This document shows positions 10,791-30,651 of a stretch of DNA of 32,000 bases, one piece after another; positions within the stretch are counted from its first letter, which is position 1; each line of letters starts with the position of its first letter. The translations under genes and the position numbers were made by a program. The notes beneath the pieces are model-generated. The model did not search any database. It had not been told where the DNA came from and worked only from the letters and a program-made list of their open reading frames with translations. The stretch comes from Geotalea uraniireducens Rf4 (GTDB taxonomy: Bacteria; Desulfobacterota; Desulfuromonadia; Geobacterales; Geobacteraceae), in assembly GCF_000016745.1 (NCBI RefSeq), contig NC_009483.1, forward strand, positions 4,620,001-4,652,000, read 5' to 3'.

Positions 10791-10923
10791 TATTACGTCC
10801 TTTCGACCAAATCGATCTTGGCGCATCCATGCCTTATTGAGTCTATTTATGTATCGGCATGAATGCCCGGAGCTTTAGCAAACACTACCCGTGCGCTGCA
10901 CCTGTTGCTATGCAAAAAAGGTC

Positions 10924-10960: not shown

Positions 10961-11018
10961 CTCATTTATCCGAAGACAATTATTAAGAGGCGCTTGATTC
11001 GAAAACACCTTTTAATTA

Positions 11019-11402
11019 ATTGGCCGAAGCAGCCCATAAGCCGGGTCCTGTTCCCGCTGCAAGTTTCCCGACCGCGGGCGATGGCCATTCATCTAGGACC
11101 GTCGTTACCGACGGCCTCAAGCAACCAACCCGGAAGCACGGACGGGCCGTCCTTAACGCTTCCCTATTTGGTCTTGCTCCTGGCGGGGTTTACCTGGCAT
11201 CCGACGTCACCGCCGGACCCGGTGAGCTCTTACCTCACCCTTTCACCCTTACCTGCCTTCGCAAAGCTCCGGCAGGCGGACTTCTCTCTGTGGCACTTTC
11301 CCTGGGGTCACCCCCGCTGGATGTTATCCAGCGCCATGCCCTATGGAGCCCGGACTTTCCTCCCCCCTTGCGGGCGGCGGCCATCTGGTCTACTTCGGCC
11401 AA
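11019..11402 (-). ncRNA. rnpB: RNase P RNA, bacterial type A
   Basis: The reverse complement contains the universally conserved GGAGGAAAGTCCGGGCTCCATAGGGCA (11363-11337), GGTAAGGGTGAAAGGGTG and ACAGGACCCGGCTTAT. P1 is formed by GGCCGAAGUAG (5') and CUGCUUCGGCC (3'). The sequence is co-linear with E. coli M1 RNA from memory. Ends are +/- a few nt. Confidence 0.93.
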
Positions 11403-11425
11403 GCTATAAAAACTTTATCCTTCTC

Positions 11426-12142
11426 TCAGTTCTCCGTTTCCTGGCGGAGGATCAACATCCTCTGGCAGTGGGGACAGGTTATCACGTCGTCTCCGCGGAA
11501 GAGCGAATTGTAGAGTTGCGGCGGCAGATTCATGTTACAGCCGAGGCAACTGCCATCCTTCGCTTCGACAACAGCCAGCCCCCTGCGCTGGTCTCTCAGC
11601 TTGTAATAGCGTTTCATTATCGAAGCAGGAAGTCCCTTTACGGCTGCATCTTTAGCAACAACACCCGCGGCGATTTCCGCTTCCAGCTTATCGACCTTTG
11701 TCTGCAATTCACCCTGTTGCGCCGCAATGTTCACTTCAAGCGCATTGAGGTTTTCCTGCTTCTCCGCCATAACCTTCTGCAGCTCTTCGAACTGTCCCAC
11801 CTTTTGCAAAATCTGTTCTTCAAGCTCAACGGTCAGCTTTTTAGCACTTGATATCTCTTTGGAAACGGCCTGGTATTCCTTCTGGGTCTTGATTTCCTTC
11901 AAGCGTGCTTCAGACCTGACAATATTCTCGCTTTCCACAGCAAGACTTTCCTCCAGGGCCTTCTTAGCCTCTTCCAATGACACAGCCTCGGCACTCTTCT
12001 CAGCAATTACATTGCGCGCCTCAACCACGCTATTCTCCAGTGCGGCAATTTCCCCGAGCAAAGTATCCTTCTCTCCATGTAGCAAGTCGATCTTCAGGTC
12101 AATCTCTTGCAACTCTCCCAGCAGTTTCAAATTGTTCCGCAA
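11426..12142 (-). CDS. COG1579/DUF164 coiled-coil protein with C-terminal C4 zinc ribbon
   Basis: 238 aa with a long heptad-rich coiled coil, then CLGCNMNLPPQ...CPHCQRMLI. It shows the conserved pairing downstream of a Nif3 gene. Confidence 0.8.
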   Translation of the reverse strand: MRNNLKLLGELQEIDLKIDLLHGEKDTLLGEIAALENSVVEARNVIAEKSAEAVSLEEAKKALEESLAVESENIVRSEARLKEIKTQKEYQAVSKEISSAKKLTVELEEQILQKVGQFEELQKVMAEKQENLNALEVNIAAQQGELQTKVDKLEAEIAAGVVAKDAAVKGLPASIMKRYYKLRDQRRGLAVVEAKDGSCLGCNMNLPPQLYNSLFRGDDVITCPHCQRMLILRQETEN

Positions 12143-13429: not shown

Positions 13430-13506
13430 TGGTGGGCCCACCAGGACTCGAACCTGGGACCGACCGGTTATGAGCCGGTAGCTCTAGCCAACTGAGCTAT
13501 AGGCCC
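13430..13506 (-). tRNA. tRNA with CAT anticodon (elongator Met or, more likely, lysidine-type Ile2)
   Basis: 77-nt cloverleaf: GGGCCTA|TA|GCTC|AGTTGGCTA|GAGC|T|ACCGG|CTCATAA|CCGGT|CGGTC|CCAGG|TTCGAGT|CCTGG|TGGGCCC|A|CCA, with encoded CCA. It is not an initiator: the 1:72 pair is intact and the anticodon stem has no GGG/CCC. C4:G69 and C5:G68 resemble the acceptor-stem determinants recalled for TilS substrates. Confidence 0.9.
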
Positions 13507-13588: not shown

Positions 13589-13626
13589 AAAGCCCCTCCC
13601 GTGTGAACATGCACGACAGGGGCTTA
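13589..13626 (-). terminator. weak terminator-like hairpin after the giant ORF
   Basis: The reverse strand reads AAGCCCCT...AGGGGCTT (8-bp GC-rich stem with an internal loop) just after the TGA at 13637-13635. The U-tract is poor (TTCGTT). Confidence 0.3.
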
Positions 13627-13634
13627 GCAGCACA

Positions 13635-16600
13635 TCAGTCGTCGTCATCGCGGTCATGCCTTCCATCTCGATCATCGTCACTGTGGTGATGATGCCCATC
13701 CTTCCGTTCATGCCGTTCCCGATCTTCGTCGTCCGATTCCCCACTGCATCCTTGTTTCCCCATATCATGTGGAACCACGACGCTGGTCACCGCGGTAGCC
13801 GTGTTTCCCGCCTTGTCGGTTGCGGTTGCGGTCACCGTGTACACCCGTCCGTCCATGTCGTCTCCGTTCCGCCACGCCTCAAGGTAGACGGTGCTGCCGC
13901 TTGGAAGGTTCTTGTAGTTGTACTTGCCGTATTCGTCGCTGATGGAGATGAGCACGGATTCCATGTCGGTTGCGGTGGTGAGGATGTTCCCCCGGACGGT
14001 CACCGGCACGAGCTTGTGATTGGGCGGCCAGAGGGTGGCGGGTGATGCGGTGACGGTTACGACGGGTGCGGTGGTTGTCACGACGATGGTAGTGGTTGTG
14101 GTTGACTGGTTTCCCGCTGGGTCTACGGTTGCTGCGCTGATGATGTTCGCTCCGTCCGAAAGGGCGGACACGGCGGCTTGCCAGGTGGTTGCCGTCGGAT
14201 AGGCAACCGTGCCGACGGTTGCCGTGGGGCTGGTTACGGTTACGGTGCAGCCTTCTTCCCTTGTTCCGCTTATCACCTGACTCTTCCGGTCGGTGGGTGT
14301 GGCTACGGGGTCGATGGTCAGAACCGGTTTGGTGATGTCATGGATGACGTTGCGCTGCACGCTTGTTTCATTTCCTGCTGCGTCTTTGGCCGTAACCTGG
14401 ATTTCGTAGGTTTTTTCTTCGGCAAAGCTTACGGCCTGCTCGAAGGCGCCGTTCGTTACTTGCGGAGTGAAGGTGTCCATGCCCATGGTTATGGTTACGG
14501 TCGGTTGGGTCAGGGCATCGGTGACTGTTCCTTTGACGGTGATGCTGCCCTGATTGGTGCGCAGGTCCTGGCCTGGGTCGGTTATGGCCAGGGACGGTTT
14601 CTGGTCGTCGAAGATGACGGTACGCTTGTCGTTGGCGGGGTTTCCGGCCTGATCGGTGGCTTTGATGTCTATGGTGTTGAGACCGGGCACAAGCGCTACG
14701 GTTGTCGAGAAGCTCGTGCCGTTGAAGTATTGGACGGGTTCTCCGATTCTGACTTCTATGGAGGCGGGTTCATCGGTTGTTCCGGCCACTTGGATTGCCG
14801 GACCGGCTGTTGCGCTGTTGTCGGGCGGGGTGGTGATGGTGATGACGGGCGCGTTCTGATCGAGGTTGATCGTCCTGGTATCGGTGGTCCTGTTGCCGGA
14901 ACGGTCGAGGGCTGTGGTTGTGATCGGATTCCCCCCCGGTTTCAGGATGACCGTATGGCTGAAACTGCCGTCGGCGTTGAGTGGGACGGGGATGTCGTTG
15001 ATCCGGAGTTCCTGCATTCCTCCTTCGTCTTTTGCGGTGCCGGCTATGTTGAGGGTTTCACCGGCGGTGAATGCGCCGTCTTTGAGCGTGGAGATGACGA
15101 GCACAGGCGGTGTGGTGTCTTTCACTTCGAAGGGGGCGCCGGTGAGGCTCTTTACGTTCCCCTGGTAGTCGTAGAGGAGGATTGCCAGGATGGTCTTTAC
15201 CCGCAGATTGCTTGTGGAGAAGGGGATATTTCCGGTCTTTGTGCCGTTTATCGGCAATGGTTCGGTTTGCGGGGCTTCTATGGTCTTGAGAAGCTCGCCG
15301 GTGTCGGGGTCTGTCAGGAGGATGCGCAGGGAATAGGCGGAGATATCTTCATTCCCCCGGTTGGTGACGGTGAAGGTGAGGTTTCCTGTTGTTCCTGCCT
15401 CAATTGTAGTTGGCTGGACTGCAACGGTCCCGGAAAGGCCTGCCCCGGATGTGGCTGAGCTGACGATCTGGAAGGTGGTGTTGGCCGAGGCGAGCAGGGT
15501 TGTTCCGTCAAGGATCTCTACTTTTGCCTGGTAGGTTCCCTTTGCACTGCCGGTGCAGTTCCACCATTTCTTCATTTCGAAACGGCCGCCGGGGGTGAGG
15601 GAGGCGATGGTTCGCGTCTCGGTGAAGACGGTCGTCCCGCTGCTGTCTTCGAGGGTCAGTCGGAAGGTCAAGTCGGCAAAGGGGAAGTTGGGGCTGGTGC
15701 TGGTTATGGCTGCGGTTATGGCTGCGCTCTCGCTGGAGGTGTAGGTGAGCTTGTCGGCTGAGATATTGGCTGTGGCGGTTTTTACCGGCAGGATGGTGAA
15801 GGGGGCGGAGGCTTGGGCTACGTCCTTCCCTGCGTCTTTCAGCCGGACAACGGCCAGGTAGCTGCCGCTGAAGGTGGTGCCGGTATTCCAGGCTGCTGTC
15901 AGGGCTATATTCCCTTTTGCGGCAAGTGAGACGGGGGTATCGGCTGTGACGGTGGCTACGGATGTCCCGGTTTCGGCTATTATGGTCACATCATAACCGA
16001 GATTCCTGGCTGTTCCGTTCAATTCATTGGCGGAGAGGGTTATGCGCACTTCTTCGTTGGCGGTGTATTCCTGCTTGTCGGTAATTGCATCGAGGCGCAG
16101 ACCTGCGGCCTGGATAAATACTTCGCGCATGCCCTGATTGTTGGTTTCGTTGCTTTCGGTGATGGTGTTATCCGGGTCTGCAACGATATGGAAGGTATGG
16201 TTGCCGGATAGTCCTATGGTGGAGAGGGTGAAGACTGCCTGGCTGCTTCCCCCCTGGGGGATCAGCTGAGGGATGACCGTCTCACCGGTCCGTTTGCCTC
16301 CGGCTGCGGGATTGCCGTCGTAGAGGGCTAGTTTGATGTTGCCTACTGCCTGGCCCAGGTTGTGGATGTTGGCGGCTATGGTCAATTGGTCCCCTTCGTT
16401 GGGGGCGGCAGGGGTGATGGTGATGTCTGCCGCGGTCACCTGCAGGTCGGGCTTGTCTGCCGGGGTGACGAGCACTTCGCGGATAGCGGTGTTGTTGGCT
16501 TTGTTGATTTCGGCAATGGCGCTAAGTGGGTCGACTACTGCGTAGAGATATGTCGTTCCTTGTGCAGCAAGGGTGTTCCAGGCGGCATGGATGGTTGCGG

Positions 16601-19600
16601 CGCCGCCGATGGCGATTGTGGGGATGACCTGGTCGGCTCCGATCTGTTTGCCGCCGGTTGCCGGGTTGCCGGCGTACACTCTAACCAGGATGTTGTTGGC
16701 ATTAAGGGTGCCGCTGTTTCTGACCGTGACCGCGATGTCGGCGAGGGTTCCTTCGGGAATGGATGCCGGGATGGCGATGTCTTCGGCTGAGATGACCAGA
16801 TCCGGGCGGCCGGTGGTGACGAAGACCGGCAGGGTTACGATGTTGTTGGTCTTGTCGCATTCGCTGATTACGCCGTCGGCGTCGGCAGTTACCTGGATGG
16901 TGTGGTTCCCTTCTGCTGGGGCGTTCCAGGTGATGGTTACGTCTTCGTAGTCGCCGGGGTTGAGGGTTCTGGTGGTGGTTGCCGTGCCGATGAGGGTGCC
17001 GCCGGTTGCCGGGTCGCCGTCGTGGAAGGCGGTTTTTACTCCCGCATCGACGGCTTTGGCGCCGCCGTTGCCGATGCGTGTTGTGATGGCGACGGAACTG
17101 GGATAGTTGGCCATGTCGACGCGCACGAAGGATGCGGAGAGGTCTGCCGCCAGGTAGGGACTGCCGGTTGACGGCGTGGTCGGCACGTTGCAGCGGTAGT
17201 TGTTGTTGGTGAGCCAGCTGGGGGTCTCATACTGCGGGATGGAGCCGTCGTCGTTGATGTTGGTGCTGTGGTAGGATGGCTGGTTCCAGATGCGGCGGGT
17301 ACCGACCCAGTCGTTGTTCTTGGCTCCGTAGACGCGAAGGCTTCCAGACGTCGGGCCGTAACCATAGTTCCCAGTTACAACAGCCTCGGCATGGCCATCA
17401 CCATCGACGTCGGCTATAACGACACTGGAGTAATCCCCTACCTGTCCGATATTTTCCTCGAAAAGGAGCGTCCCATCTTTCCCTTCAAAAACCCTGAAAT
17501 ATGGGCCACTGTGTATTAAGACTTTTGGACGTCCGTCGCCGTTTAAATCAAAAACAGACGGAGCAGGGACATCCATTTGCCAACCGGAATTAGGAATGGC
17601 AAGTGTCATTTTGAGACGTCCTTCTGAATCAAGGATTAAATATTTGCTTTCTCCTCGTATGCCGATCTCAGGCTTGCCATCACCATCAAAGTCGGCAATG
17701 ACCGTATGGCCGCCAGTCATATCGTATTTGGCAGTCGGCTCCAGATTTTTCAAAAAGACCGGCCCCCATTTGACTTGACCGGTATGATCGAGTAAGTACA
17801 CTCTCCCTCCCACCCCCCCAGCGAATGGGGGTGGATTAAGATTGGTAAGCAGCACCACTTCCGGATACGGATCATTGTCGAAGTTTCCAACTGCTGTAAA
17901 CCCATCTGTCAGAGAGCTATTAATCCATTTAATGGTGCAATCGTTGTTATAGGCAGTGTAACCAGCAATGATCTCCTGCTTTCCGTCCATATCCAGGTCC
18001 GCCACTGATACTGAATAGCCGAAGCCATTCGACATTCCCGCACCGCCTCTCAACCGATAATCCGGCGCGCAACGAACGGATCCATCCCAGTTGAAAATCG
18101 TTGGACCGTAGATGATTTCTGAATGGCCATCGCCATCCAAATCGGCTAGCACCGGAATGTTACCTTCTTCCATGGTGGTACTGTAACCTGGGTTAGCCAG
18201 CCGCCACGCTGTTACCTGGGCACTGTTATCCCACTTGAGGGTGCCGTCATGGGCAAGAGCTAGCAATCCCACACCGAATCTTCTTTTTATTACTATCTCA
18301 GGCTTGCCATCTCCATCGATATCGCCTACTATCGGATATCCCCCCTCATACGGAGCCTGACCGGTGACAAATCTCGTGAAGCTCACATCCCCCGTATCCC
18401 CCTTGAAGGCCCAAAGCTTTCCTTCCAAGGTCTGGTAGTTGCCAGCAAATGCGTTTACCAGGATTGCCGGTTTGTCGTAATTGTCGATTTTGTCGTCGCC
18501 GTTATCGTCGGTGAGGCTTATCACCACCGGCGTGGAGAGTATCCGGCCCAAAGTTGGGTCAGGTGTGCGTGGCCACTGCCACTTCACCACCGGCTCGATT
18601 GGGTTTGCCGGCCGCGCCGCGCAAGCCGCCCCCCGCCGTATAGTATTATTGATCTCGTTCTGCTCGAACACCGCCTGGCCGCTGTCCACCAAGGCGTAAA
18701 TGGGGGCATCCCTGAAGGTCACGGTTCCCGAGAGGTTGATCGACACGACTCCGACCATGTTGGGATTCATGGGGGTGGCGTAGTCCCAGGAGCCGAGCGC
18801 CTGGTCTGTTCCTTCGGTGTAGACGCCGTCGTTGTCCTTGTCCTCGAAGACGGTGATGCGGAATGGTGTGGCGACCTTGTCGTCTCCTTTGTTCTGGAAC
18901 TTGACCTTCGCCATGCCGGATATGCGCAGGCTCTGCGGGTCGGTGGTCGTGGCGGAGAGGTCGAACTCCAGGGGAACCAGGTCCGGTCCTTTGGCTTCAG
19001 CGGAACTCTTCACCAAGAGGGAGCGGATGGCGGTGTTGTTGTCTTCGTACAGCTCCGCGACCTTGTTGTCCGGGTCGCAGACGGCGTAGAAGCGGTAGGT
19101 GCCTCTGGCTGCGGTGAACGGATAAGTCAGGTCTACGGTGCCGTCACCGGGAAGGTCGGCTATGGCTAAGGTCTGGAGGAGGGTTCCGCCGCTGTTTGGG
19201 TCGCCGTTGTAGAGGTTGACGTTGAAGGGGCCGGTTGCCTTTATCCCCCGGTTCTGCACGGTCACCTTTACGGTTACGGGGTCGCCGTCCATGGGGTGCT
19301 CGGGGGCGATGGCGATGTCGGAGGCGGAGACTTCGATGTCCACCATGTCGGCCATGACCGGGAGGATCTGGCTGTTGTTGGTTTCGTCCCGCTCGGCGCC
19401 GGCGTTTAGCCGGTCGATGTAGGCGCGCAGCGTGCGTATGCCGGGGGGAACCTGCCACGGGACGGCTACGCTTCTCGTCTCGCCGGCATTGAGGGTGACG
19501 GTGGCTTTCTGTAGTAGTGTGCCGCCTGCGGCCGGGTCGCTGTCGAAGAGCTCCAGGTCAGCGGTGGCGGCTTCGGTGCCGTTGTTGACGGCGGCAATGG

Positions 19601-21221
19601 TGACGGTGACGGTGGCGCCGCTTGCCGGGCGGGCGGGGTCGAGCCGGATGCCATTCATCGGGATGGCCAGGTCGATGAAGCCTGCGCCGCTGGTGGTATT
19701 GACGGTGATGTCCTTCCGGGCGGTGTTATTTGCCGTGGAAAGCTCGGTGATGGCATGCTGCGGGTCGGCAACCAGGGTGAGGGTGTGGACGCCGGCGGTG
19801 GCCGGGGTGAAGGTGAAGCTCCCCTCTCCCCAAGCGCCTGCTGCGATGCCGGCCATGGTGACGGTGCCGAGCTGGATGCCGCCCGCGTTCGGGTCGCCGT
19901 CGTAGAGGATGGCGCTAAAGCTCCCGGCTGCGCTCTCACCCATGTTGGCGACCGCGAAGGCAAGGGTGACGCTCTCCCCCGGTTTGAGATAGGCGGGGGT
20001 CACGGTGAGAAAGTCGGGGGTGACGACCAGGTCGGCCGGAGCCTTGGCCCAGAGGCGAACGTTGGCGCTGTTGTTTGTCTTGCTCACTTCGTTGATGGTA
20101 TTGGCCGGATCGATGGCGACGGTCAGGACATGCTCGCCGACCGCAGCGAGGGGGGCAATGGCGAAGGTGGCCGGGACGGTTGCGCCTGGATTGATGGTCG
20201 GAATGGTCTGCTCGCCGATAGAAGCGCCGTTGTCGAGGAGCCGGACAACAACGCCGGTTGCCGCTTCCAGACCGATGTTTGCGACGATGGCAGTAACGGT
20301 GAGGCTGTCGCCGACGGTGGGGCTGTTTGGAGATACGGCGATATTGGCAGTCGCAATGGCCAGGTCGGGTTTGACGTAGGAGAGCGCCCGCAGTGCCAGG
20401 GCTGTGGAATACGGGTCGTCGTTCCAGGAGCCGTTGGCAGATTGGGTGGCGGTGAGGTAGTTGCCGGCATTCTGTAGGGGCTGGGCTTGCCCCTGCCCGC
20501 TTTCGATGAGGGCGATGAAGGCCAGGGCGGTTTCGTAGACGATGGATGAACCCACACCGAAGCCGCCGTCGGGGTTCTGACTGGAAAGGAGGAATGAGGC
20601 GGCGCTCGCGAGTTGCGGCTCGACGATATAGACGGTTCTAAACCGGGCCAGGGTGGAAAGCACCTGCGCCGTTACGTAAATGTTGCTGTCGTCTCCCTGA
20701 TAGAACCCCCAGCCGCCGTCGGGGTTTTGGGTGGAGAGGAGGTAGCTGAGGGCGGGATAGATGACGCTCTGGTCGGTGTAGTTGGCGGCTTTCAGGGCTT
20801 GGAGGGCAAGGGCGGTATGAAAGTTACTGTTAGCTTGGTTCAGATACCCTCCCCAGCCAGTTCCAGAGTTTCTATAAGAAAGAAGAGTATTGACGTCGGT
20901 AGTGGCGTCTCCCCCTGAAGCCGTGACTATCTTGACCTTAGGAGCCAAATATGTTGTGCTTTCAGCTTTCTCATTACTCAGCCAGTTAAGGCCATTTGTA
21001 TATGAGAATGACGCATCGCTCAAAACCGCAAATGACTCCAAAACTGCGGCCGTAGTATAATAATCGGTCGATGAAGACGGTGAATTACTCCAACTCCCAT
21101 CTGTCGCCTGAATTGCCTTAAGCCAATTCAACCCGTTCAATATTGCCGCACTTTGTGCGTGAGATGTTACGGGCCAAAGCGACAGTATCAAGAGGAGACC
21201 ACCGAATATTTTCCTTATCAT
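13635..21221 (-). CDS. giant secreted multidomain surface protein (2,528 aa): signal peptide, alpha/alpha-toroid (prenyltransferase/terpene-cyclase-like) repeats, 5 CARDB, FG-GAP/VCBS beta-propeller, 3 CARDB, Ig-like arrays, Asp/His/Arg-rich tail
   Basis: The signal peptide is MIRKIFGGLLLILSLWPVTSHA. Four QxxDGSW/NPDGGWG repeats lie at ~20375-21145. Eight units have the CARDB logic (PDL...V.N.G...DP.N.I.E..E.NN). Seven to eight DxDGDGxxE blades lie at ~17250-18620 (VGDIDGDGKPEIVI, LADLDGDGHSEIIYG, IADFDGDGKPEIGI and others). Repeated D.T.P...I...AGN Ig-like units lie at ~14050-15120. A WPPNHKLVPV domain precedes the tail ESDDEDRERHERKDGHHHHSDDDRDGRHDRDDDD. Confidence 0.9.
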   Translation of the reverse strand: MIRKIFGGLLLILSLWPVTSHAQSAAILNGLNWLKAIQATDGSWSNSPSSSTDYYTTAAVLESFAVLSDASFSYTNGLNWLSNEKAESTTYLAPKVKIVTASGGDATTDVNTLLSYRNSGTGWGGYLNQANSNFHTALALQALKAANYTDQSVIYPALSYLLSTQNPDGGWGFYQGDDSNIYVTAQVLSTLARFRTVYIVEPQLASAASFLLSSQNPDGGFGVGSSIVYETALAFIALIESGQGQAQPLQNAGNYLTATQSANGSWNDDPYSTALALRALSYVKPDLAIATANIAVSPNSPTVGDSLTVTAIVANIGLEAATGVVVRLLDNGASIGEQTIPTINPGATVPATFAIAPLAAVGEHVLTVAIDPANTINEVSKTNNSANVRLWAKAPADLVVTPDFLTVTPAYLKPGESVTLAFAVANMGESAAGSFSAILYDGDPNAGGIQLGTVTMAGIAAGAWGEGSFTFTPATAGVHTLTLVADPQHAITELSTANNTARKDITVNTTSGAGFIDLAIPMNGIRLDPARPASGATVTVTIAAVNNGTEAATADLELFDSDPAAGGTLLQKATVTLNAGETRSVAVPWQVPPGIRTLRAYIDRLNAGAERDETNNSQILPVMADMVDIEVSASDIAIAPEHPMDGDPVTVKVTVQNRGIKATGPFNVNLYNGDPNSGGTLLQTLAIADLPGDGTVDLTYPFTAARGTYRFYAVCDPDNKVAELYEDNNTAIRSLLVKSSAEAKGPDLVPLEFDLSATTTDPQSLRISGMAKVKFQNKGDDKVATPFRITVFEDKDNDGVYTEGTDQALGSWDYATPMNPNMVGVVSINLSGTVTFRDAPIYALVDSGQAVFEQNEINNTIRRGAACAARPANPIEPVVKWQWPRTPDPTLGRILSTPVVISLTDDNGDDKIDNYDKPAILVNAFAGNYQTLEGKLWAFKGDTGDVSFTRFVTGQAPYEGGYPIVGDIDGDGKPEIVIKRRFGVGLLALAHDGTLKWDNSAQVTAWRLANPGYSTTMEEGNIPVLADLDGDGHSEIIYGPTIFNWDGSVRCAPDYRLRGGAGMSNGFGYSVSVADLDMDGKQEIIAGYTAYNNDCTIKWINSSLTDGFTAVGNFDNDPYPEVVLLTNLNPPPFAGGVGGRVYLLDHTGQVKWGPVFLKNLEPTAKYDMTGGHTVIADFDGDGKPEIGIRGESKYLILDSEGRLKMTLAIPNSGWQMDVPAPSVFDLNGDGRPKVLIHSGPYFRVFEGKDGTLLFEENIGQVGDYSSVVIADVDGDGHAEAVVTGNYGYGPTSGSLRVYGAKNNDWVGTRRIWNQPSYHSTNINDDGSIPQYETPSWLTNNNYRCNVPTTPSTGSPYLAADLSASFVRVDMANYPSSVAITTRIGNGGAKAVDAGVKTAFHDGDPATGGTLIGTATTTRTLNPGDYEDVTITWNAPAEGNHTIQVTADADGVISECDKTNNIVTLPVFVTTGRPDLVISAEDIAIPASIPEGTLADIAVTVRNSGTLNANNILVRVYAGNPATGGKQIGADQVIPTIAIGGAATIHAAWNTLAAQGTTYLYAVVDPLSAIAEINKANNTAIREVLVTPADKPDLQVTAADITITPAAPNEGDQLTIAANIHNLGQAVGNIKLALYDGNPAAGGKRTGETVIPQLIPQGGSSQAVFTLSTIGLSGNHTFHIVADPDNTITESNETNNQGMREVFIQAAGLRLDAITDKQEYTANEEVRITLSANELNGTARNLGYDVTIIAETGTSVATVTADTPVSLAAKGNIALTAAWNTGTTFSGSYLAVVRLKDAGKDVAQASAPFTILPVKTATANISADKLTYTSSESAAITAAITSTSPNFPFADLTFRLTLEDSSGTTVFTETRTIASLTPGGRFEMKKWWNCTGSAKGTYQAKVEILDGTTLLASANTTFQIVSSATSGAGLSGTVAVQPTTIEAGTTGNLTFTVTNRGNEDISAYSLRILLTDPDTGELLKTIEAPQTEPLPINGTKTGNIPFSTSNLRVKTILAILLYDYQGNVKSLTGAPFEVKDTTPPVLVISTLKDGAFTAGETLNIAGTAKDEGGMQELRINDIPVPLNADGSFSHTVILKPGGNPITTTALDRSGNRTTDTRTINLDQNAPVITITTPPDNSATAGPAIQVAGTTDEPASIEVRIGEPVQYFNGTSFSTTVALVPGLNTIDIKATDQAGNPANDKRTVIFDDQKPSLAITDPGQDLRTNQGSITVKGTVTDALTQPTVTITMGMDTFTPQVTNGAFEQAVSFAEEKTYEIQVTAKDAAGNETSVQRNVIHDITKPVLTIDPVATPTDRKSQVISGTREEGCTVTVTSPTATVGTVAYPTATTWQAAVSALSDGANIISAATVDPAGNQSTTTTTIVVTTTAPVVTVTASPATLWPPNHKLVPVTVRGNILTTATDMESVLISISDEYGKYNYKNLPSGSTVYLEAWRNGDDMDGRVYTVTATATDKAGNTATAVTSVVVPHDMGKQGCSGESDDEDRERHERKDGHHHHSDDDRDGRHDRDDDD

Positions 21222-21293
21222 ATGCCCTCTCCGAATCTGAATTTTTTCATTGAATGGTAATCAACAACAAACGAAGCCATCCTATAAGTTGGA

Positions 21294-21839
21294 CTAATTT
21301 TTTCTACCAGTTTTCTGAATTAATTTTTCATGCGGATTGAGGAAAAACATCCTCTCGAAACCATATTTTTCTGATTTATATTCCCATACATAAGGAATTT
21401 GCGTAATTATGGCGTAATGCAGATGTGGAGCTTTTCCAACTGCATTGCCAGTAGCGCCGACTGTCCCTATTTCTGAGCCTTGTTGGACAAATTCACCACT
21501 ACCGACTTTTAGAGTTTTTAGGTGAGCATAGTAGTGAACCCGCCATTTTGGCCCAAGGACAGAGATGACGTTGCCCCCATCTTTATTGGATTCAGCAGAT
21601 ACAACAAGGCCAGAACAAGCGGCAATAACAGGAGTTCCTTCTTTAGCAAAAATATCGATCCCTTTGTGAACGCCAGATTTGCCCCACGGGCTGAACCAGA
21701 AGGATTTTGAGTTCCAATCTGCTCTGGTTGCGCCCTTGACTGGAATTATTAATTCTTCAGGCAAGAATAGGCCACCGCACAAAACGATGCTCGCCAGAAT
21801 GGCGGCAACAAATACAAATTTTTTCAAAGGAAATTTCAT
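21294..21839 (-). CDS. M23 family metallopeptidase (LytM-type), N-terminally anchored
   Basis: 181 aa with a hydrophobic N-terminus (FVFVAAILASIVLCGGLF), HxxxD (HKGID) and HxH (PHLHY) zinc motifs, plus the typical GTVGATGNAVGKAPHLH block. Confidence 0.85.
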   Translation of the reverse strand: MKFPLKKFVFVAAILASIVLCGGLFLPEELIIPVKGATRADWNSKSFWFSPWGKSGVHKGIDIFAKEGTPVIAACSGLVVSAESNKDGGNVISVLGPKWRVHYYAHLKTLKVGSGEFVQQGSEIGTVGATGNAVGKAPHLHYAIITQIPYVWEYKSEKYGFERMFFLNPHEKLIQKTGRKN

Positions 21840-21873
21840 ATTGAATTTGGCTCGCTAACGGCTGTTGAAATTA

Positions 21874-22983
21874 TTATTTCTTCAGAAACAACTCAGGGTT
21901 ACTTAACCACAGAGCAAAGTAAGGATAATCCCCATTCTTTTGTTTGAGACAAATCAGGAATGGTTTGTCGAAAACAAATTTCCTTGGCTTTTCCACACTT
22001 GGTGGTGGGACCTCTTCTTTCATCATGTTGAGGAATCCCCTAGATTTAAGTACGGCCCCCTTCTCATCCAATTTGAATTTGATATCATGGGTCGCCTTTG
22101 CTATGAACCACCCTTCCCAACCTTTGTTTAATATCCGTTTGTTCTCCAGTTCAGTAAAGCTGTGGGTGATATCAAAATCAACCTTTGGAATTCTTAGGGG
22201 TTCATTCTCTCGCAGTTCAGACGCGTTAACTCCCATTCTATGCAGCACGGTTGTATATGTTTGTAAAAGGGTTTTATTAGGCGGAACTTTAGCCATAATT
22301 ATCTGGTCATCATTGGATTTACTGGTTAATACAAGAATAAAGTCGTTTTCGTTTCTGTAATCGAAAATAGAAACTTGGTTGGATAGTTTTTCGTGACGCC
22401 GATTAGATGAGGAAAATGATGGTATTCCAAACCCTTTTACATGTGCTTCGCGTCCATTGGCAATAAATGCAATTGGATCATCCAGCCTTTCGAATTCAGT
22501 CGGAAACTCCAAATTTTTGTACAGGAAAGCATATGCGATAAGCTGCCTGGCGCTACTCGTAGCTTGTGGGATATTGAACTCGTGTGCAACCTGCTCACCG
22601 AACTTTTCATGCAATTCTTTTTCAATTCTTGCGGCAAGGTTTTTCGACAACTCACCAGCTACTGCTACATATGACCCAGAAGATATGTCATTATTTCTCT
22701 GCAATTGCCGGTTCAGATTCTTGGCAAGGGGTGTATCAGGCTCAAGAATGATATCGCCCTTAATGATTTGATCACGCATAATATTCCAGGCCATCTGGAA
22801 TGATGCGCAGTAGAGCAAATTGTTACTTAAATTGATCTGATCCTCTAAATGTGAAGAAATGATTGTATGCTCAGTTTTTGTTATTGCGGATTGTGACTCA
22901 TTACCGTTGGTACACGCCGATACGTTAAACATTGAGCATAAACTGATTAAGATTGAGATTATTGATCCTAATTTTCTTTTCAT
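21874..22983 (-). CDS. serpin-family protein, predicted lipoprotein, atypical hinge
   Basis: The C-terminal serpin signature is KFVFDKPFLICLKQKNGDYPYFALWLSNP (compare F.ADxPFLF.I....ILF.G....P), with the breach/hinge LDEKGAVLKS. The start is moved to ATG 22983 (MKRKLGSIISILISLCSMFNVSAC) behind a GGAGG SD, and the lipobox is V-S-A-C. Confidence 0.75.
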   Translation of the reverse strand: MKRKLGSIISILISLCSMFNVSACTNGNESQSAITKTEHTIISSHLEDQINLSNNLLYCASFQMAWNIMRDQIIKGDIILEPDTPLAKNLNRQLQRNNDISSGSYVAVAGELSKNLAARIEKELHEKFGEQVAHEFNIPQATSSARQLIAYAFLYKNLEFPTEFERLDDPIAFIANGREAHVKGFGIPSFSSSNRRHEKLSNQVSIFDYRNENDFILVLTSKSNDDQIIMAKVPPNKTLLQTYTTVLHRMGVNASELRENEPLRIPKVDFDITHSFTELENKRILNKGWEGWFIAKATHDIKFKLDEKGAVLKSRGFLNMMKEEVPPPSVEKPRKFVFDKPFLICLKQKNGDYPYFALWLSNPELFLKK

Positions 22984-23013
22984 CTTGCCTCCGATTATAA
23001 TTATCCAATCCAA

Positions 23014-26000
23014 TCAAAGTGAATCCAAAGTTAATGATCCACCTTTTATAACCACATATGGTTCATTAGCGTCTGAACTTGGAGTTACGTATTTACCATC
23101 AGCAATACCTGCAGCTGATATCGCAGCGGATTTACCTGAAATAAAGCTACGCCACCAATCAAAAGCAAAATCTCCCGATTCAAAATATTCTACAGAGTGA
23201 GTCCACCCCATGAATACTAGATTATCGACACCAAATGAATTCATAAAACTACCCCGATCTCCAGAACGGCAGCTGTCAAGGAAAACAACACGTGCATTAG
23301 CTTTTGTAATATCGCCAGAATAAACATACTCCGGTTTACCGTCTTTATCATAACCTGGTATTAACATATCCCCATAGTCTGGGCTCGTATTTCCATGTCC
23401 GCTATAATATACAATCCAATTATCTGGCCTGTTGATAAGACTTAACAATTCTTCTTTAGAAAAAGTATACTCATGCCTTGGTATAAATCCTTTAGAAAGT
23501 AACATACCACCGATGGCAAAAATCATAATCTCATCATATCCAGCTCCAATCCATCTCCCTATCCCCCTATTTAAGGCGAACTGGTTTGCTGGTTTTCCTA
23601 GTGCAAGAGCTGCATATTGACGCGAAAGGAGCCTCCCCAACAGTGATATTGATGAAGGTGAACTGGTACTTCCTCCTCCTGCCAGCCCATTCGAAATCAT
23701 GTAAGCGCCTTCGCCAGTATCCGGGTTCCTCACTATGAATCCTGTACCGCTCCACTCATTGCGAGTGATCTTGCTTCCAGGAATTGTCACCTCTTTACCT
23801 GCAGCAACAGCATTTTGAATGTCATCTTTTACCTGTTGCGTCTGGTTCAGCAGCGGCAGGGTTTGACTTACATTTGCGCTATTGATCGTGTAAATCGTCT
23901 GCCCCGCCTCGTTTGCCAGCTGAAGTAGTTTTACCGTAGATACTGAATCAATCCCGGAAAAGCTTTCCCAAATAGCATGCTCAAAGTACGATGAATTGAG
24001 GCCTTGGATTTTGGTGAACGCCTTTTCTTGCTCCTTGTCGCCGATGATGGAAAATGGAGATTGAATGTATCTCGGGATGTCGATAACCAGCCCCGAAATG
24101 ATGGGGGGCGATACCATGAGCCCGAAAAACTCCCGGTACTTCGCCGATACTGAGACGAACCCGGCATTTACCGCTCTCGTGTTATAAATGTGCATCACAC
24201 CTTCGAGCACCTTTGAGGCATTATTCGTGTGGGTGAAGTATTGCAGGCCGATGTTGTGCAGTACCTTGCCGACCTGATTGTCCCCGCTGTTGATTGAATC
24301 GTAGAAGGTGCCGACGAGGTTTTCCGAGTTGTCTAGTCCCCCCAGTGCCTGTTTGCTTGCGACATTCAGGGCGGAAAGCCCGATGTTGTAATAGAGGCCA
24401 GCTGCCATTTCGGTTTCGATGGAGTCGCCGAAACTGCCGGGCGTGGAAAACTGTAGGTTAAGCTTCAACGATTCTCCCATGCCTATCGGCGGCCCTTCCA
24501 GGACAACCGTATCGTCAACTTTCACCCGCGCCTTGACTTTTATCAGATAGGCCGGTGTCTTCAGCAATCCTCCATAGTTGGTCATTACCGCGCTGTCTTG
24601 ATCTGTGGCGGGAGTGTAGGATACGGTGATTTGCTTTCCGGTCAGCTCACAGACGTCTTTCGTTATGGCTGTTGCATCATCTGTTGTGGGATCGCGCAGT
24701 CCTATTGAAATCTTGTGTCGCAGTAATGTATCGATACTTGCGAACTTGCTGCCGACAACGACCGTTTTGTACGGCAGCGTCCCAAGAAAGACGCCGAATT
24801 CGTGCTCTTTGATCTTTTTCAGGTAAAACATCTCATACATGCCACCCTGGTAGTTGGCAGTATGGTAGTCTTCCAAGGCGAACAGGTAGGTAAGTGAAGG
24901 GGGCAATTTGCTCTGAGCCCGCAGATAGTCGGACTCATTGAACTTAACAATCTTTGACATATCCACGGAGGTATTGAGTTCATGCTCCTTGAAGCTCGGG
25001 TCAATGGGTGTCCAGGCGTTACCAGGGCCATTCTTGGCGCCAAAGGATGGGTACATGTTGACATACGCCTCCACCCAGACATGCTCCAGACGGATCGTTG
25101 AAATTTTTCCACCGCTCACGCCTGCTTTTGCAGGTATCCCCCCTGTTGCCAGTATATTTGCCGCCGTAGTTGGGTCCTTGACTCCAATCCATGACATTAC
25201 CCTCTCGATTGGTATTTCAATGGTTCCTGTAACATATTTGGCTGGGATATTTGCCGCTCTTAACAGAGCAATCAACAAGCTGGCCTGGTCGTAGTTATTC
25301 CCGGATTTTTCCATCAGCGTCTGCTGCGCCCCTTTTAGGGAACCATAATACGGTTCATATTCAGCGTTGTTCCGCACCCACTCGTAAATCTTAACCGGGT
25401 TGTTCCCCAACTCCAGAGCCTTGGCCCTGATCTCAGGAGTCAACTGGACGTCAACAGTCTCCGCCAGATCAGCGGCAGTGGGTGGGGTAACGGCATTGAC
25501 CATGCTGGAGGTAAGCAACCCGGCCAAAGACCCCGCCGAGGCGACCATGATCCGCTTTTCATTTCTCCATGCGTTCTTGTCCTTCTTTAAATCCCGCTCA
25601 AACTCCTCCTTCTTCAGCCGCGGCTCCCGCTTTATCACCTTCGGCTGCCGGTGGGGAAGGTTGTTCGGATCAAGGGGCTGATGTCGTGTCGGAGCCTTCA
25701 CCTTTTCCAGGTGTTTCCGGGTCTTCTCGATCTCAGCCTCTGCTTCTTTCTTATCTTTGGCCTTCTCAACCCGCTCGATATTCCCCTTCAACTCAGCCAG
25801 ATTGTCGTCATAGTGCTTGACGAACCGGCGATGGCGCTCCAGAATCTCGGCCGGTAACTTGGCATCCTTAAGCCGCTTCTCCGTCTCGGCGAACTGCTTG
25901 CGGATATCCGTGTCGAGTGCGTCCACCTCCGCCTTTTTGAGCCGCAGGCGACCTTTCTTTGCTTCAATGTCCTCCTTCGGGTCGGCAAGTATCGCCTCCA

Positions 26001-26181
26001 TCTCCCCGGTAACTTTAGAAAATTTCTCCTCCGCCCCTTCCGGCTTTTTCTCCTGACGTTGCGTCTTTGCCTTCCTGGCCTCAACCTGCGCCGCATTGGC
26101 GATGCTGAACACCCCACCCGAAGTCCAGGTGAAAAAGCACAATATAACAGCTGCTATCGTCCTCGAATATTTGCGGAACAT
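23014..26181 (-). CDS. secreted 1,055-aa fusion protein: K/E-rich coiled coil, transglutaminase-like core lacking the Cys nucleophile, large middle region, C-terminal clan-CD (caspase/gingipain-like) His-Cys domain
   Basis: The signal peptide is MFRKYSRTIAAVILCFFTWTSGGVFSIANA. The TGase-core pattern is GNNYDQASLLIALLRAANIPAKYVTG ... LEHVWVEAYV ... WTPIDPS. The C-terminus has WIVYYSGHG ... VVFLDSCRSG. A GGGAGGA SD lies upstream. Confidence 0.75.
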   Translation of the reverse strand: MFRKYSRTIAAVILCFFTWTSGGVFSIANAAQVEARKAKTQRQEKKPEGAEEKFSKVTGEMEAILADPKEDIEAKKGRLRLKKAEVDALDTDIRKQFAETEKRLKDAKLPAEILERHRRFVKHYDDNLAELKGNIERVEKAKDKKEAEAEIEKTRKHLEKVKAPTRHQPLDPNNLPHRQPKVIKREPRLKKEEFERDLKKDKNAWRNEKRIMVASAGSLAGLLTSSMVNAVTPPTAADLAETVDVQLTPEIRAKALELGNNPVKIYEWVRNNAEYEPYYGSLKGAQQTLMEKSGNNYDQASLLIALLRAANIPAKYVTGTIEIPIERVMSWIGVKDPTTAANILATGGIPAKAGVSGGKISTIRLEHVWVEAYVNMYPSFGAKNGPGNAWTPIDPSFKEHELNTSVDMSKIVKFNESDYLRAQSKLPPSLTYLFALEDYHTANYQGGMYEMFYLKKIKEHEFGVFLGTLPYKTVVVGSKFASIDTLLRHKISIGLRDPTTDDATAITKDVCELTGKQITVSYTPATDQDSAVMTNYGGLLKTPAYLIKVKARVKVDDTVVLEGPPIGMGESLKLNLQFSTPGSFGDSIETEMAAGLYYNIGLSALNVASKQALGGLDNSENLVGTFYDSINSGDNQVGKVLHNIGLQYFTHTNNASKVLEGVMHIYNTRAVNAGFVSVSAKYREFFGLMVSPPIISGLVIDIPRYIQSPFSIIGDKEQEKAFTKIQGLNSSYFEHAIWESFSGIDSVSTVKLLQLANEAGQTIYTINSANVSQTLPLLNQTQQVKDDIQNAVAAGKEVTIPGSKITRNEWSGTGFIVRNPDTGEGAYMISNGLAGGGSTSSPSSISLLGRLLSRQYAALALGKPANQFALNRGIGRWIGAGYDEIMIFAIGGMLLSKGFIPRHEYTFSKEELLSLINRPDNWIVYYSGHGNTSPDYGDMLIPGYDKDGKPEYVYSGDITKANARVVFLDSCRSGDRGSFMNSFGVDNLVFMGWTHSVEYFESGDFAFDWWRSFISGKSAAISAAGIADGKYVTPSSDANEPYVVIKGGSLTLDSL

Positions 26182-26228
26182 CTATCCTCCCGAAGCAATC
26201 TAATAAAATAAAATGAAAAAACGACGCG

Positions 26229-26272
26229 AAAGTGTAAAAAATTTTTACAAGTGTAAAAATTTTTTACACTTT
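26229..26272. promoter_or_regulatory. 44-bp perfect palindrome (21-nt arms, 2-nt centre) / two tandem 19-bp quasi-palindromic units in the operon leader
   Basis: AAAGTGTAAAAAATTTTTACA-AG-TGTAAAAATTTTTTACACTTT. The arms are exact reverse complements. It also reads as AGTGTAAAAAATTTTTACA + AGTGTAAAAATTTTTTACA (TGT-N11-ACA twice). It lies 48-91 bp upstream of the 23014..26181 gene start. Confidence 0.6.
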
Positions 26273-26300
26273 ATCCCCCTGTTTTTACTAATTATTTCGC

Positions 26301-26329
26301 AATATATGGGAATGCTTCATAGTATTCAA
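26301..26329 (-). promoter_or_regulatory. candidate sigma70 promoter of the four-gene operon (TTGAAT-N17-TATATT)
   Basis: The reverse strand reads cacTTGAATactatgaagcattcccaTATATTgcg. The -35 is at 26329-26324 and the -10 at 26306-26301. This would put the palindrome at about +22 to +65 of the transcript. Confidence 0.4.
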
Positions 26330-26422
26330 GTGCATTAAGAATATATTTTTTTAATTAGGTGCAAATCCGCGGAAGGATATAAGCCGTTGAGTTTTGAGCA
26401 GCTCTTTTAAATTTGATTATTT

Positions 26423-26592
26423 AACCTAAAAACGGCAGTTGTTTACCGCAAAGGCGCAAAGGGCGCAAAGAAATTCAAATACTTATGGGGATAAAGATCC
26501 AAATCAATCGGGTGAAAGGTTTCCGTTAGATAAATGATTGATTTTACTTCGCGTTCTTAGCGCCTTTGCGGTTCAAATGCTTTTTCTAGGTT
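26423..26592. mobile_element. MITE/REP-like foldback element A (~170 bp, ~50-bp imperfect terminal inverted repeats, CGCAAAG heptamer triplets)
   Basis: The left end is AACCTAAAAACGGCAGTTGTTTACCGCAAAGGCGCAAAGGGCGCAAAGAAA. The reverse complement of the right end is AACCTAGAAAAAGCATTTGAACCGCAAAGGCGCTAAGAACGCGAAGTAAA. No ORF is present. Confidence 0.6.
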
Positions 26593-26655
26593 TAAACGTA
26601 AGGAGAGTTACAGCGAAGGTAGGAGTAATAAAGAGGTACACGCGTCCAAGGAATC

Positions 26656-26685
26656 ATGACAACCGGCTGCATGTAATGTTATACT
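26656..26685 (+). promoter_or_regulatory. possible promoter for the macro-domain gene (ATGACA-N18-TATACT)
   Basis: The hexamers are seen at 26656-26661 and 26680-26685, ~65 nt upstream of ATG 26750. This is sequence match only. Confidence 0.3.
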
Positions 26686-26749
26686 CATTGCCGCCGGATG
26701 TACCCCGTACACCGGACAGCACAACATCCATCACGAAGAAAGTCATGCA

Positions 26750-27175
26750 ATGAAAGAAATTATCGGCAACATCTGGGATTATCAGGATAAGGCCATCATC
26801 GCCATAACCACCAACGGCCTGGTGGGGAAAACCGGGCTTGCTGTTTTCGGCCGGGGGTGCGCCAGACAGGCAATGGAACGCTTCCCCGACCTGCCGGCAC
26901 GGCTCGGCTCCTTGATCAATGCGCAAGGAAACCACGTTTTTTATCTGGGCAATGGGATTGTCAGCTTTCCTGTCGAGCATACCCCCTATGAAACGCCCGA
27001 CCTGCGCCTGATCAAACGTTCAGCCGGGGAGTTGGCAACACTTGCCGACAAAGAAGGGTGGCGCCTGGTGATCGTACCGAGGCCCGGATGCGGTGGCGGC
27101 GGCCTTGACTGGCGCGAAGTGAAACCGGTTCTGGAGAGTTGCCTCGACGACCGTTTCGTCATCATCTCCCAGTAA
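26750..27175 (+). CDS. small stand-alone macro-domain-like protein (ADP-ribose binding/hydrolase fold)
   Basis: 141 aa. GNIWDY..KAIIAITTNG...GLAVFGRGCARQAMERFP and LVIVPRPGCGGGGLDWREV mirror the GD(I/L)...AIV..(T/V)N....G.GIA and P.IGCG.GGL.W..V blocks of short phage-type macro domains. Confidence 0.55.
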   Translation: MKEIIGNIWDYQDKAIIAITTNGLVGKTGLAVFGRGCARQAMERFPDLPARLGSLINAQGNHVFYLGNGIVSFPVEHTPYETPDLRLIKRSAGELATLADKEGWRLVIVPRPGCGGGGLDWREVKPVLESCLDDRFVIISQ

Positions 27176-30608: not shown

Positions 30609-30651
30609 ATTCCGCCCCCCTATGTTCTGATATTTATATAAGTGGATTAAA

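Follow-up and report, generated by a model that had tools for sequence, protein, structure and literature searches.

Four adjacent genes for exported proteins

This work concerns a row of four genes in Geotalea uraniireducens Rf4 that we propose as a candidate toxin module. They lie in a stretch of 32,000 nucleotides (positions 4,620,001 to 4,652,000 of the forward strand of contig NC_009483.1, assembly GCF_000016745.1), which was analysed as a whole and is called the window below; coordinates are those of the window. The four open reading frames (ORFs) follow one another on the minus strand: gene 1 runs from 26181 to 23014 (1055 amino acids [aa]), gene 2 from 22983 to 21874 (369 aa), gene 3 from 21839 to 21294 (181 aa) and gene 4 from 21221 to 13635 (2528 aa), with intergenic distances of 30, 34 and 72 bp. 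An alternative TTG start of gene 2 at position 23013 would give a product of 379 aa. Genes 1, 2 and 4 are preceded by GGAGG-type Shine-Dalgarno sequences, and no clear one was recognised on inspection at the start of gene 3. As read from the sequence, the N-termini are a signal peptide (ANA/AQ) in gene 1, a lipobox (VSAC) in gene 2, a signal anchor in gene 3 and a second signal peptide in gene 4.

This layout agrees with an earlier, sequence-only reading of the window, which had described four genes on the same strand with these gaps, Shine-Dalgarno sequences before the three starts that it had inspected and an extracytoplasmic N-terminus on each product. Its domain assignments (Cys-less transglutaminase, clan-CD protease, serpin, M23 peptidase and a giant protein with toroid, CARDB and FG-GAP parts) were likewise borne out by Pfam and by structure matches of the models, and the co-conservation on which it had made its proposal depend was found, as the four-gene extracytoplasmic unit recurs in other genomes.

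A conserved scaffold with exchangeable C-termini

Gene 1 (23014..26181, minus strand, as are the protein-coding features described below) encodes a polymorphic-toxin-type protein, in which a conserved N-terminal scaffold of about 837 aa is followed by a variable C-terminal domain. The scaffold begins with a hydrophobic segment defined by conserved columns (aa 1-30; 26092..26181), which may be a signal peptide or an anchor, and continues with a charged, probably alpha-helical region (aa 31-215; 25537..26091), for which the evidence is the sequence and a weak helical-bundle-type match only. A transglutaminase-like core (aa 247-395; 24997..25443) was assigned by Pfam (Transglut_core, E = 1e-16) and by alignment to 3isr_A. 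It is followed by a middle domain of about 440 aa, for which the family profile found no match in the PDB, and by the junction motif AYMISNGLAGGG (aa 826-837; 23671..23706), beyond which the homologues diverge. When the profile of the whole toxin family was compared with the PDB, the transglutaminase core (3isr) was the sole match. The nucleophilic Cys of transglutaminases is replaced by Asn296 in gene 1 (GNNYDQAS) and by Ala in the family consensus, with His367 and Asp394 retained; in the solved transglutaminase-like protein 3isr, the Cys aligns opposite the position of Asn296. The leader of gene 1 is unusually conserved: among 36 diverse members, F17 and W19 are invariant, and F16, T20 and G23 are each kept in at least 90%. 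A generic signal peptide would not require conservation of this degree, which points to a functional anchor in the membrane or to a dedicated signal for sorting.

More than 950 relatives of gene 1 were found. Most of the 120 homologues that we aligned match residues 1 to about 836 alone and then diverge, the point of divergence falling right after the motif AYMISGGLxGG (aa ~837), and the C-termini beyond it are unrelated. Relative to the homologue of locus L001, identity is 85% up to the motif and 35% thereafter, with the break at residues 837/838. Clustering of the C-termini with low-complexity filtering gave at least 45 clusters. They include NlpC/P60, CHAP, prokaryotic-PLA2-like (CxxHDxCY) and SLT-like domains, and most are not proteases; about 30 clusters consist of domains of 110-160 residues made largely of membrane helices. 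In three loci the N-terminal module of gene 1 is followed by PKD, PASTA and DUF6531 domains and 12-23 RHS repeats, which is the make-up of a canonical Rhs toxin. The PASTA domain of these Rhs-type members (L041, 10001-18235; L066, 9983-18253; L051, 10001-16213) lies between PKD and RHS, and they come from diderm bacteria; PASTA is normally the peptidoglycan- or beta-lactam-binding module of Gram-positive kinases and penicillin-binding proteins. Gene 1 itself had no RHS match in Pfam. Because its architecture matches published work on inactive transglutaminase modules and 'Tox-Caspase' domains (Zhang et al. 2012; PMC3482391), gene 1 belongs, as judged from its sequence, to a polymorphic toxin family, of which it is a short form that lacks RHS and bears a clan-CD warhead.

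The C-terminal domain has a clan-CD protease fold

For the C-terminal 218 residues of the gene 1 product (aa 838-1055; 23017..23670), a model was obtained with a predicted local distance difference test (pLDDT) score of 89.3. The model matches CHAT (8tl0; template modelling [TM] score 0.60), the metacaspase Yca1, caspase-1, the gingipain RgpB, MALT1 and separase, that is, the caspase/CHAT/gingipain fold. His929 and Cys971 form a dyad that does not vary among 31 relatives (YYSGH929G and VFLDSC971), and as in clan CD the His precedes the Cys and each of them ends a hydrophobic strand. None of the curated families C14, C25 and CHAT reached its threshold for this domain. Sub-threshold matches were obtained among 20 domain members for Peptidase_C14 (7/20) and C25 (2/20), and one distant relative is annotated as CHAT (PF12770). 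From the model and the dyad, the warhead would be a clan-CD (caspase/CHAT-like) cysteine protease acting in the periplasm or cell envelope.

Downstream genes co-vary with the C-terminus

The family profile was used to retrieve 76 genomic loci, in which we predicted ORFs and then grouped by similarity both the C-termini and the genes behind them. The majority of the downstream families that recur belong to a single C-terminal cluster, and a few, such as D5, D8 and D12, are shared between clusters. Behind helix-rich C-termini, small proteins with multiple transmembrane segments are encoded, and behind soluble enzymatic C-termini, proteins of 300-430 aa that have a single hydrophobic segment at the N-terminus. 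The partner of a caspase-type C-terminus is a serpin or a member of an unrelated family of about 310 residues (P310), for which no Pfam or PDB match was found, and sometimes both are present. P310 (D0), M23 (D1) and serpin (D2) genes were found solely after caspase-type C-termini.

The choice between the two partners varies with the subclade of the C-terminus. Those at least 62% identical to that of the window pair with a serpin (the window, L007 and L009), and the others pair with P310; for three of the six members of the subclade (P0002, P0003 and P0007) the serpin pairing is only inferred, from contigs of matching length. A serpin of 37% identity still follows a transglutaminase-type protein whose caspase-type C-terminus is about 28% identical. 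In the window, L007, L009 and L081, no gene other than the serpin occupies the immunity position, and L081 lacks M23. Conversely, M23 is found with P310 and without a serpin in L003, L010 and L025. Overall, P310 is commoner than the serpin after caspase-type toxins, and both occur together in L005 and L083.

The base composition of the locus changes at the same border. The GC content at third codon positions (GC3) is 0.63 in the scaffold of gene 1, 0.28 in its C-terminal domain, 0.41 in the serpin gene, 0.37 in the M23 gene and 0.70 in the giant gene, so that a low-GC3 cassette (0.28-0.41) is enclosed by flanks of 0.63-0.70. Because of this GC3 break and the drop in identity from 85% to 35% at residues 837/838, the warhead, serpin and M23 evidently arrived as one foreign cassette, to judge from sequence composition and alignment. 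The serpin and M23 are accessory cassette genes of the caspase-type warhead and not part of the module core.

A serpin-fold lipoprotein in the immunity position

Gene 2 (21874..22983; lipobox VSAC at aa 21-24) encodes a lipoprotein with a serpin fold and occupies the immunity position. The Pfam family Serpin (PF00079) matched only its C-terminal 87 residues (E = 1.4e-3), and the 18.4 bits are below the cut-off of 27; two relatives (P0128 and P0189) bear PF00079 in precomputed annotation. A sequence search against the PDB found nothing, and the fold was recognised by structure comparison alone: the top 50 PDB matches of the AlphaFold model (pLDDT 86.6) were all serpins or serpin-fold proteins (E to 4e-10, TM scores 0.4-0.5). 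A low-confidence exposed loop of the model (residues 315-332) is located at the site expected for the reactive-centre loop. In the family alignment, the conserved hinge DEKGA[V/L]LKS is followed by a stretch variable in length and sequence and then by a conserved FxFDKPF. The hinge of gene 2 (DEKGAVLKS, aa 306-314) and its variable reactive-centre-type loop (aa 316-335) are encoded at 21979-22068. The E-K-G at the start of the hinge is conserved, and the inward-facing residues P14/P12/P10/P8, in our own numbering, read A/L/S/G; as far as can be told from the sequence, loop insertion would not be precluded by them. The layout resembles that of alpha-1-antitrypsin, and the loop is about 7 residues longer in a manual alignment.

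Serpins that inhibit clan-CD proteases are known, namely viral CrmA with caspases 1/8 and Arabidopsis Serpin1 with metacaspase 9, and bacterial lipoprotein serpins such as miropin exist as well. Our literature search returned no account of a serpin as the immunity protein of a polymorphic toxin. The best reading of gene 2 is that it would act as cognate inhibitor of the clan-CD domain. More distant relatives (L087-L161), 30-43% identical to gene 2, form a widespread family of compact serpin-like proteins of about 350-480 aa encoded by stand-alone genes, around which no conserved neighbours were found. Several ORFs of 575-1013 aa in this set suggest N-terminal fusions or artefacts of ORF calling.

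The M23 peptidase travels with the cassette

Gene 3 (21294..21839), located in the low-GC cassette, encodes a membrane-anchored M23 (LytM-type) metallopeptidase, an endopeptidase of the peptidoglycan type. Peptidase_M23 was matched with E = 1e-24 (86.6 bits against a threshold of 28.7), and the zinc ligands HxxxD and HxH are intact (HKGID, aa 58-62; HLHYA, aa 139-143). Both motifs are conserved in nine full-length orthologues, and the tenth (L082) is truncated before HxH. The M23 proteins are 80-90% identical between loci whose warheads share only 36-50%. Among the toxin loci, M23 occurs downstream of caspase-type warheads only, after serpin or P310 alike, and it is also kept in orphan pairs of serpin and M23 genes. 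Because it is retained in these pairs, is highly conserved and has intact zinc ligands, M23 belongs to the cassette and looks tied to its protective side and under purifying selection. For its role we can offer guesses: replacement of a target by a toxin-resistant version, repair of damage, or local opening or remodelling of the wall. In L082 (8001-9543), a Y1-transposase-like gene lies near the serpin gene and the C-terminally truncated M23 gene.

The giant protein has a constant toroid head and an exchangeable body

Gene 4 (13635..21221) encodes a giant secreted protein. Its head (aa 24-283; 20373..21152) is an alpha/alpha toroid similar to squalene-hopene cyclases (SHCs). An FG-GAP beta-propeller region follows at approximately aa 900-1400 (17022..18524), flanked by CARDB repeats at about 19002-20372 and 15942-17024; beyond the CARDB repeats lie Glucodextran_B and Ig-like domains, and an acidic, His-rich tail is encoded at 13638-13775. 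Pfam accounts for seven CARDB copies, FG-GAP, the toroid (SQHop_cyclase_C/TED-like) and Glucodextran_B. The best matches of the head are SHC chains (E = 1e-17), and a weak Pfam match was obtained to the thioester domain (TED) of A-macroglobulins (E = 1.5e-6, 28 bits). The conserved positions of the toroid are those of the structural QW-type repeats (QxxDGxW) only, and the toroid contains neither a CxEQ thioester nor a DxDD acid motif; no macroglobulin (MG) domain was matched in the giant. By these motif criteria, the toroid is a structural or binding head, and neither an enzyme nor a trap.

A toroid gene is located on the same strand and at most 6 kb downstream in 44 of the 56 family members with at least 4 kb of flanking sequence. 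It is present whatever the warhead, Rhs forms included, and also in the isolates G. daltonii and T. lovleyi. The modules occur in tandem as units of toxin gene, small gene(s) and toroid gene. When the distance matrices of scaffolds and toroids were compared, the Mantel correlation was r = 0.54 and none of 2000 permutations reached this value, which at the level of sequences demonstrates co-inheritance of scaffold and toroid and is not proof of contact.

The remainder of the giant behaves differently. The giants that accompany the most similar scaffolds (L001, L003 and L009) have only residues 1-280 in common with it, and its full-length homologues (60%, 45% and 41% identity) stand beside toxins with other warheads. 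The closest of them (L016, 60% over 2389 aa) is found with a different toxin C-terminus and with neither serpin nor M23. From these alignments the giant is a mosaic, whose body is exchanged independently of the toroid head. Because each of the two proteins has one constant and one exchangeable part, the two constant parts may act together or with a common machinery. Many toroid giants end with a shared motif of about 50 residues (...MVKFKRxDVIxxLPxGxxVxVxVTGxVGxxxFEGVDxIRVI in L014, L033, L042, L064 and L070); the giant of the window lacks it and ends in GESDDEDRERHERKDGHHHHSDDDRDGRHDRDDDD.

Regulatory elements and genomic surroundings

Upstream of gene 1, a sigma-70-like promoter match (TTGAAT-17-TATATT; 26301..26329, minus strand) agrees with the consensus at 9/12 positions and is a weak consensus match only. 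Between this site and the start of gene 1 lies an operator-like palindrome (arms 26216-26249 and 26252-26285), in which a self-complementary unit of 19 bp occurs twice in tandem (26230-26268); two matches were obtained in 0/100 shuffles. Its 17-mer core TGTAAAAAWTTTTTACA, at 26233-26249 and 26252-26268, is also found upstream of the homologous toxin genes of two G. toluenoxydans loci (L005, 9086-9102; L010, 9528-9544) and is absent from the other 80 loci. The palindrome may serve as operator for a regulator. No alignment was obtained for the upstream regions of related modules. The promoter and palindrome had both been put forward in the sequence-only reading: the palindrome is real by the shuffling test, and the promoter is weak. 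That reading had also seen no internal terminator, and we found no convincing one within the four-gene unit. A GC-rich hairpin right after the gene 4 stop codon (13590..13625, minus strand; minimum free energy -35.4 kcal/mol, z = -3.56) is likely the terminator of the whole unit.

The cluster is flanked by housekeeping genes, an RlmL-type methyltransferase gene on one side and tRNA-Met and NIF3 genes on the other. The 570 bp 5' of gene 1 (26182-26750) are AT-rich (GC 0.376 versus 0.537 for the window) and contain only short unassigned ORFs, which lie on both strands. Immediately behind the giant gene comes the tRNA-Met gene (13430-13506, minus strand), and 2 kb farther on that of the bacterial RNase P RNA (11022-11396, minus strand); two ORFs that overlap this RNA (10994-11851 and 11020-11409) are probably spurious. 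Further minus-strand genes of the window encode a response-regulator-PilZ fusion protein (10080-10826), a penicillin-binding-protein-type transpeptidase with a C-terminal PASTA domain (5054-7027) and, next to each other, two multihaem cytochromes of the c7/class III type (259 and 289 aa; 29062-30680). A comparison of the tRNA-Met side with the upstream border of the cluster revealed no att-like direct or inverted repeats of at least 11 nucleotides.

The genomic contexts of the relatives differ: a Tn7-like tnsABCDE in Trichlorobacter lovleyi, clpX-lon-hup in L001, and RlmL and tRNA-Met in the window. In T. lovleyi (L003/L004, 1077-9290), the genes for toxin, P310, M23 and a toroid giant of 3684 aa stand directly after tnsABCDE, as if the module were transposon cargo.

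A polymorphic toxin module as the most probable explanation

A constant N-terminus with a variable C-terminus, downstream genes that co-vary with it and the exchange of cassettes are the features by which polymorphic toxins are recognised, and all three were found here. We therefore consider it probable that the locus represents a Sec-dependent polymorphic toxin module. Gene 1 would be the toxin, composed of leader, helical region, dead transglutaminase-like domain, the ~440-aa domain, the AYMISGGLxGG motif and an exchangeable C-terminal warhead. The serpin would most likely be the cognate immunity protein, which shields the periplasm of the producer by inhibiting the clan-CD warhead, and M23 would travel with the immunity side of the horizontally exchanged cassette. 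As second constant partner, the giant may display, export or target the toxin at the cell surface, and its variable Ig-like/propeller body may confer adhesion or target specificity. The pairs of serpin and M23 genes that lack a toxin may be orphan immunity cassettes.

Several observations weigh against this interpretation. Serpin and M23 genes occur as pairs without any toxin gene in L082, L085 and L086. A metagenome scan with the serpin profile gave 79 loci, of which one had a toxin upstream and two had serpin and M23 without a toxin; in the remaining ones, 30-43% identical, the serpin gene stands alone in unrelated housekeeping contexts. Because the wider family is mostly stand-alone, it is, as far as sequence comparison goes, not dedicated to immunity, and only a single subclade of it has entered toxin cassettes. 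Residues P12-P9 of gene 2 are L-K-S-R, without the Ala-rich hinge of classical inhibitory serpins. Some members of the toxin family, for example in G. daltonii, have no gene between toxin and giant, and a toroid gene was not detected for 12 of the 56 members whose flanks are long enough. The family of the C-terminal domain is small: an exhaustive search of 1.8 billion proteins gave 18 representatives, where a word-indexed profile search had given three. At the sensitivity of phmmer, no other toxin scaffold was found to carry the clan-CD warhead. Finally, there is no evident path for the toxin through the outer membrane. The window carries no markers of type V, VI or VII secretion systems (T5SS, T6SS or T7SS).

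The sequence-only reading had put forward a different explanation, namely that the giant is an adhesin whose processing, release or anchoring depends on the clan-CD domain and/or M23, with the membrane-tethered serpin restraining the protease. The genes are indeed co-directional, tightly spaced and co-conserved, clan-CD domains are described as processing large surface proteins or toxins (PMC3482391), and the restraint of the clan-CD domain by the serpin is the part of this proposal that we retain. Processing of the giant is not supported, however: toroid giants occur beside NlpC/P60, PLA2-like, SLT-like, helix-rich and Rhs C-termini, and the closest homologue of the giant is found with another C-terminus and without serpin or M23. 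Because the giant accompanies non-protease C-termini, it does not generally need a caspase-type protease. Moreover, protease, serpin and M23 form an insert of foreign composition between two genes of native composition, and we regard a maturation protease as improbable. Less probable still is the second earlier proposal, a protease-trapping or defensive layer in the manner of alpha-2-macroglobulin or complement, with the toroid as thioester domain, the serpin as inhibitor and the transglutaminase as cross-linker. The weak TED match of the toroid, a faint MG2 match in a neighbouring gene of L001 and the presence of a serpin fold agree with it. But the toroid, whose best matches are SHCs, has no thioester or catalytic motif and is conserved beside non-protease toxins, the serpin is accessory rather than core, and cross-linking is unlikely because the nucleophilic Cys of the transglutaminase domain has been lost family-wide.

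Alternatively, the scaffold proteins could be housekeeping or developmental factors (wall hydrolases, lipases and membrane anchors) that remodel the envelope of the producer itself, for example in assembly of the giant, with the downstream genes as regulators. Many C-termini are directed at wall or membrane, the helix-rich ones could be anchors, some members have no small downstream gene, and M23 is conserved like a housekeeping enzyme. The extreme diversity of the C-termini and the several paralogous modules per genome instead indicate a conflict system, as do the Rhs variants, the foreign composition of the cassette, the orphan downstream genes and the mobile contexts, so that self-directed remodelling seems to us a poor candidate. 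Somewhat more weight, though still little, is due to the possibility that the toxin is as proposed and the serpin is not its immunity protein: serpin and M23 would be an independent pair inside the toxin locus, for instance an inhibitor of periplasmic proteases with a wall enzyme, and immunity would be provided by P310-type proteins or be missing here. The toxin-less pairs, the mostly stand-alone wider family, the atypical hinge and the frequency of P310 after caspase-type toxins, including its co-occurrence with the serpin, all fit this explanation. Yet the serpin is alone in the immunity position in four loci, serpin and M23 each occur without the other, and the choice between serpin and P310 tracks the C-terminal subclade. 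Furthermore, serpins are not known to inhibit metallopeptidases.

Several further assignments were rejected. With its nucleophile replaced, gene 1 is unlikely to be an active transglutaminase cross-linker, and without CxEQ and MG domains the giant is not a thioester trap. A terpene cyclase was rejected because of a single toroid of about 260 aa behind a signal peptide and the absence of DxDD. Delivery by T5SS contact-dependent inhibition, T6SS or T7SS was rejected on the markers, as the four proteins and the flanking genes of the window contain no two-partner secretion (TPS) domain or CdiB, no PAAR, VgrG or Hcp and no LXG or WXG. None of the four proteins matched the PADLOC models of anti-phage systems.

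Comparison with known systems

Like SHCs and the thioester domain of alpha-2-macroglobulin, the first ~260 residues of the mature giant form an alpha/alpha toroid with QW-type repeats. Unlike SHCs, the toroid is secreted, single and without DxDD; class II cyclases have a two-domain beta-gamma toroid, are associated with the membrane and face the cytoplasm. It also differs from alpha-2-macroglobulin and complement in lacking CxEQ, with no flanking MG domains matched in the giant and a TED match that is weak only. The proposed pairing of gene 1 and gene 2 resembles those of CrmA with caspases and of Serpin1 with metacaspase 9 in that a serpin with a bait loop partners a caspase-fold protease, and with miropin gene 2 shares the lipid anchor and the diderm host. 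In contrast to these three, it would serve self-protection from a toxin, and it differs in its L-K-S-R hinge and longer loop.

The sequence-only reading knew of no named bacterial system with this combination of parts. This view has to be abandoned, since the architecture is that of a polymorphic toxin system, and both the inactive N-terminal transglutaminase module of RHS toxins and 'Tox-Caspase' C-terminal domains with Imm36 as immunity protein have been described (Zhang et al. 2012; PMC3482391). The inactive-transglutaminase Rhs toxins of that study share with gene 1 the signal peptide, the degenerate transglutaminase, a variable C-terminal toxin and the immunity genes that follow, and some members of the gene 1 family bear RHS repeats. 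In the protein of the window, by contrast, RHS is missing and the warhead follows directly after the ~440-aa domain and AYMISGGLxGG. As in Tox-Caspase, a clan-CD His/Cys domain is the C-terminal-most part of a Sec-exported polymorphic toxin. The partners of the window family differ, being a serpin lipoprotein or P310, and its closest solved folds are CHAT. Because P310 has no Pfam match and the serpin only a sub-threshold match to Serpin, neither appears to be Imm36. The words 'serpin', 'prenyl' and 'Geobacter' have 0 occurrences each in PMC3482391, and a linked toroid giant is not mentioned there.

Further similarities exist to the contact-dependent inhibition systems CdiA/CdiI, ionophoric CdiA C-termini included (PMC11630599), which likewise combine a constant delivery region, a junction motif, a variable C-terminal toxin and a cognate immunity gene behind it. 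Hydrophobic, membrane-targeting C-termini paired with membrane immunity proteins are a further common feature, represented here by the helix-rich C-termini and their multi-transmembrane partners. Unlike CdiA, gene 1 has no TPS domain, CdiB or filamentous haemagglutinin repeats, and the large repeat protein is encoded by a separate downstream gene.

Measured against the searchable literature, four elements appear to be new: the RHS-less scaffold that carries its warhead directly, the near-constant toroid partner, a serpin in the immunity position and the cassette-borne M23. Taking these together, one could speculate that scaffold and toroid giant constitute an unrecognised Sec-dependent display or delivery apparatus of anaerobic diderms (Geobacterales, Nitrospirota and Thermodesulfobacteriota), in which the head docks the scaffold and the body picks the target, and in which a serpin was recruited against a caspase-fold toxin as a counterpart to CrmA and caspase. 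We offer this extended model tentatively and think it rather less likely to be right than wrong.

How Sec-exported polymorphic toxins of the Rhs and MafB types leave a diderm producer and enter a neighbouring cell is an open question. With its constant domain and swapped body, the toroid protein, whose gene accompanies about 80% of one toxin family, is a testable candidate for a missing partner in this process. If serpin immunity against a caspase-fold toxin is true, the antagonism of serpins and caspases, so far known in viruses, animals and plants, would reach into bacterial warfare as well, and some of the compact serpin-like lipoproteins that are widespread in bacteria would gain a function. 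The multi-copy modules may shape kin discrimination and community structure of Geobacter and Nitrospirota in dense biofilms and aquifer sediments.

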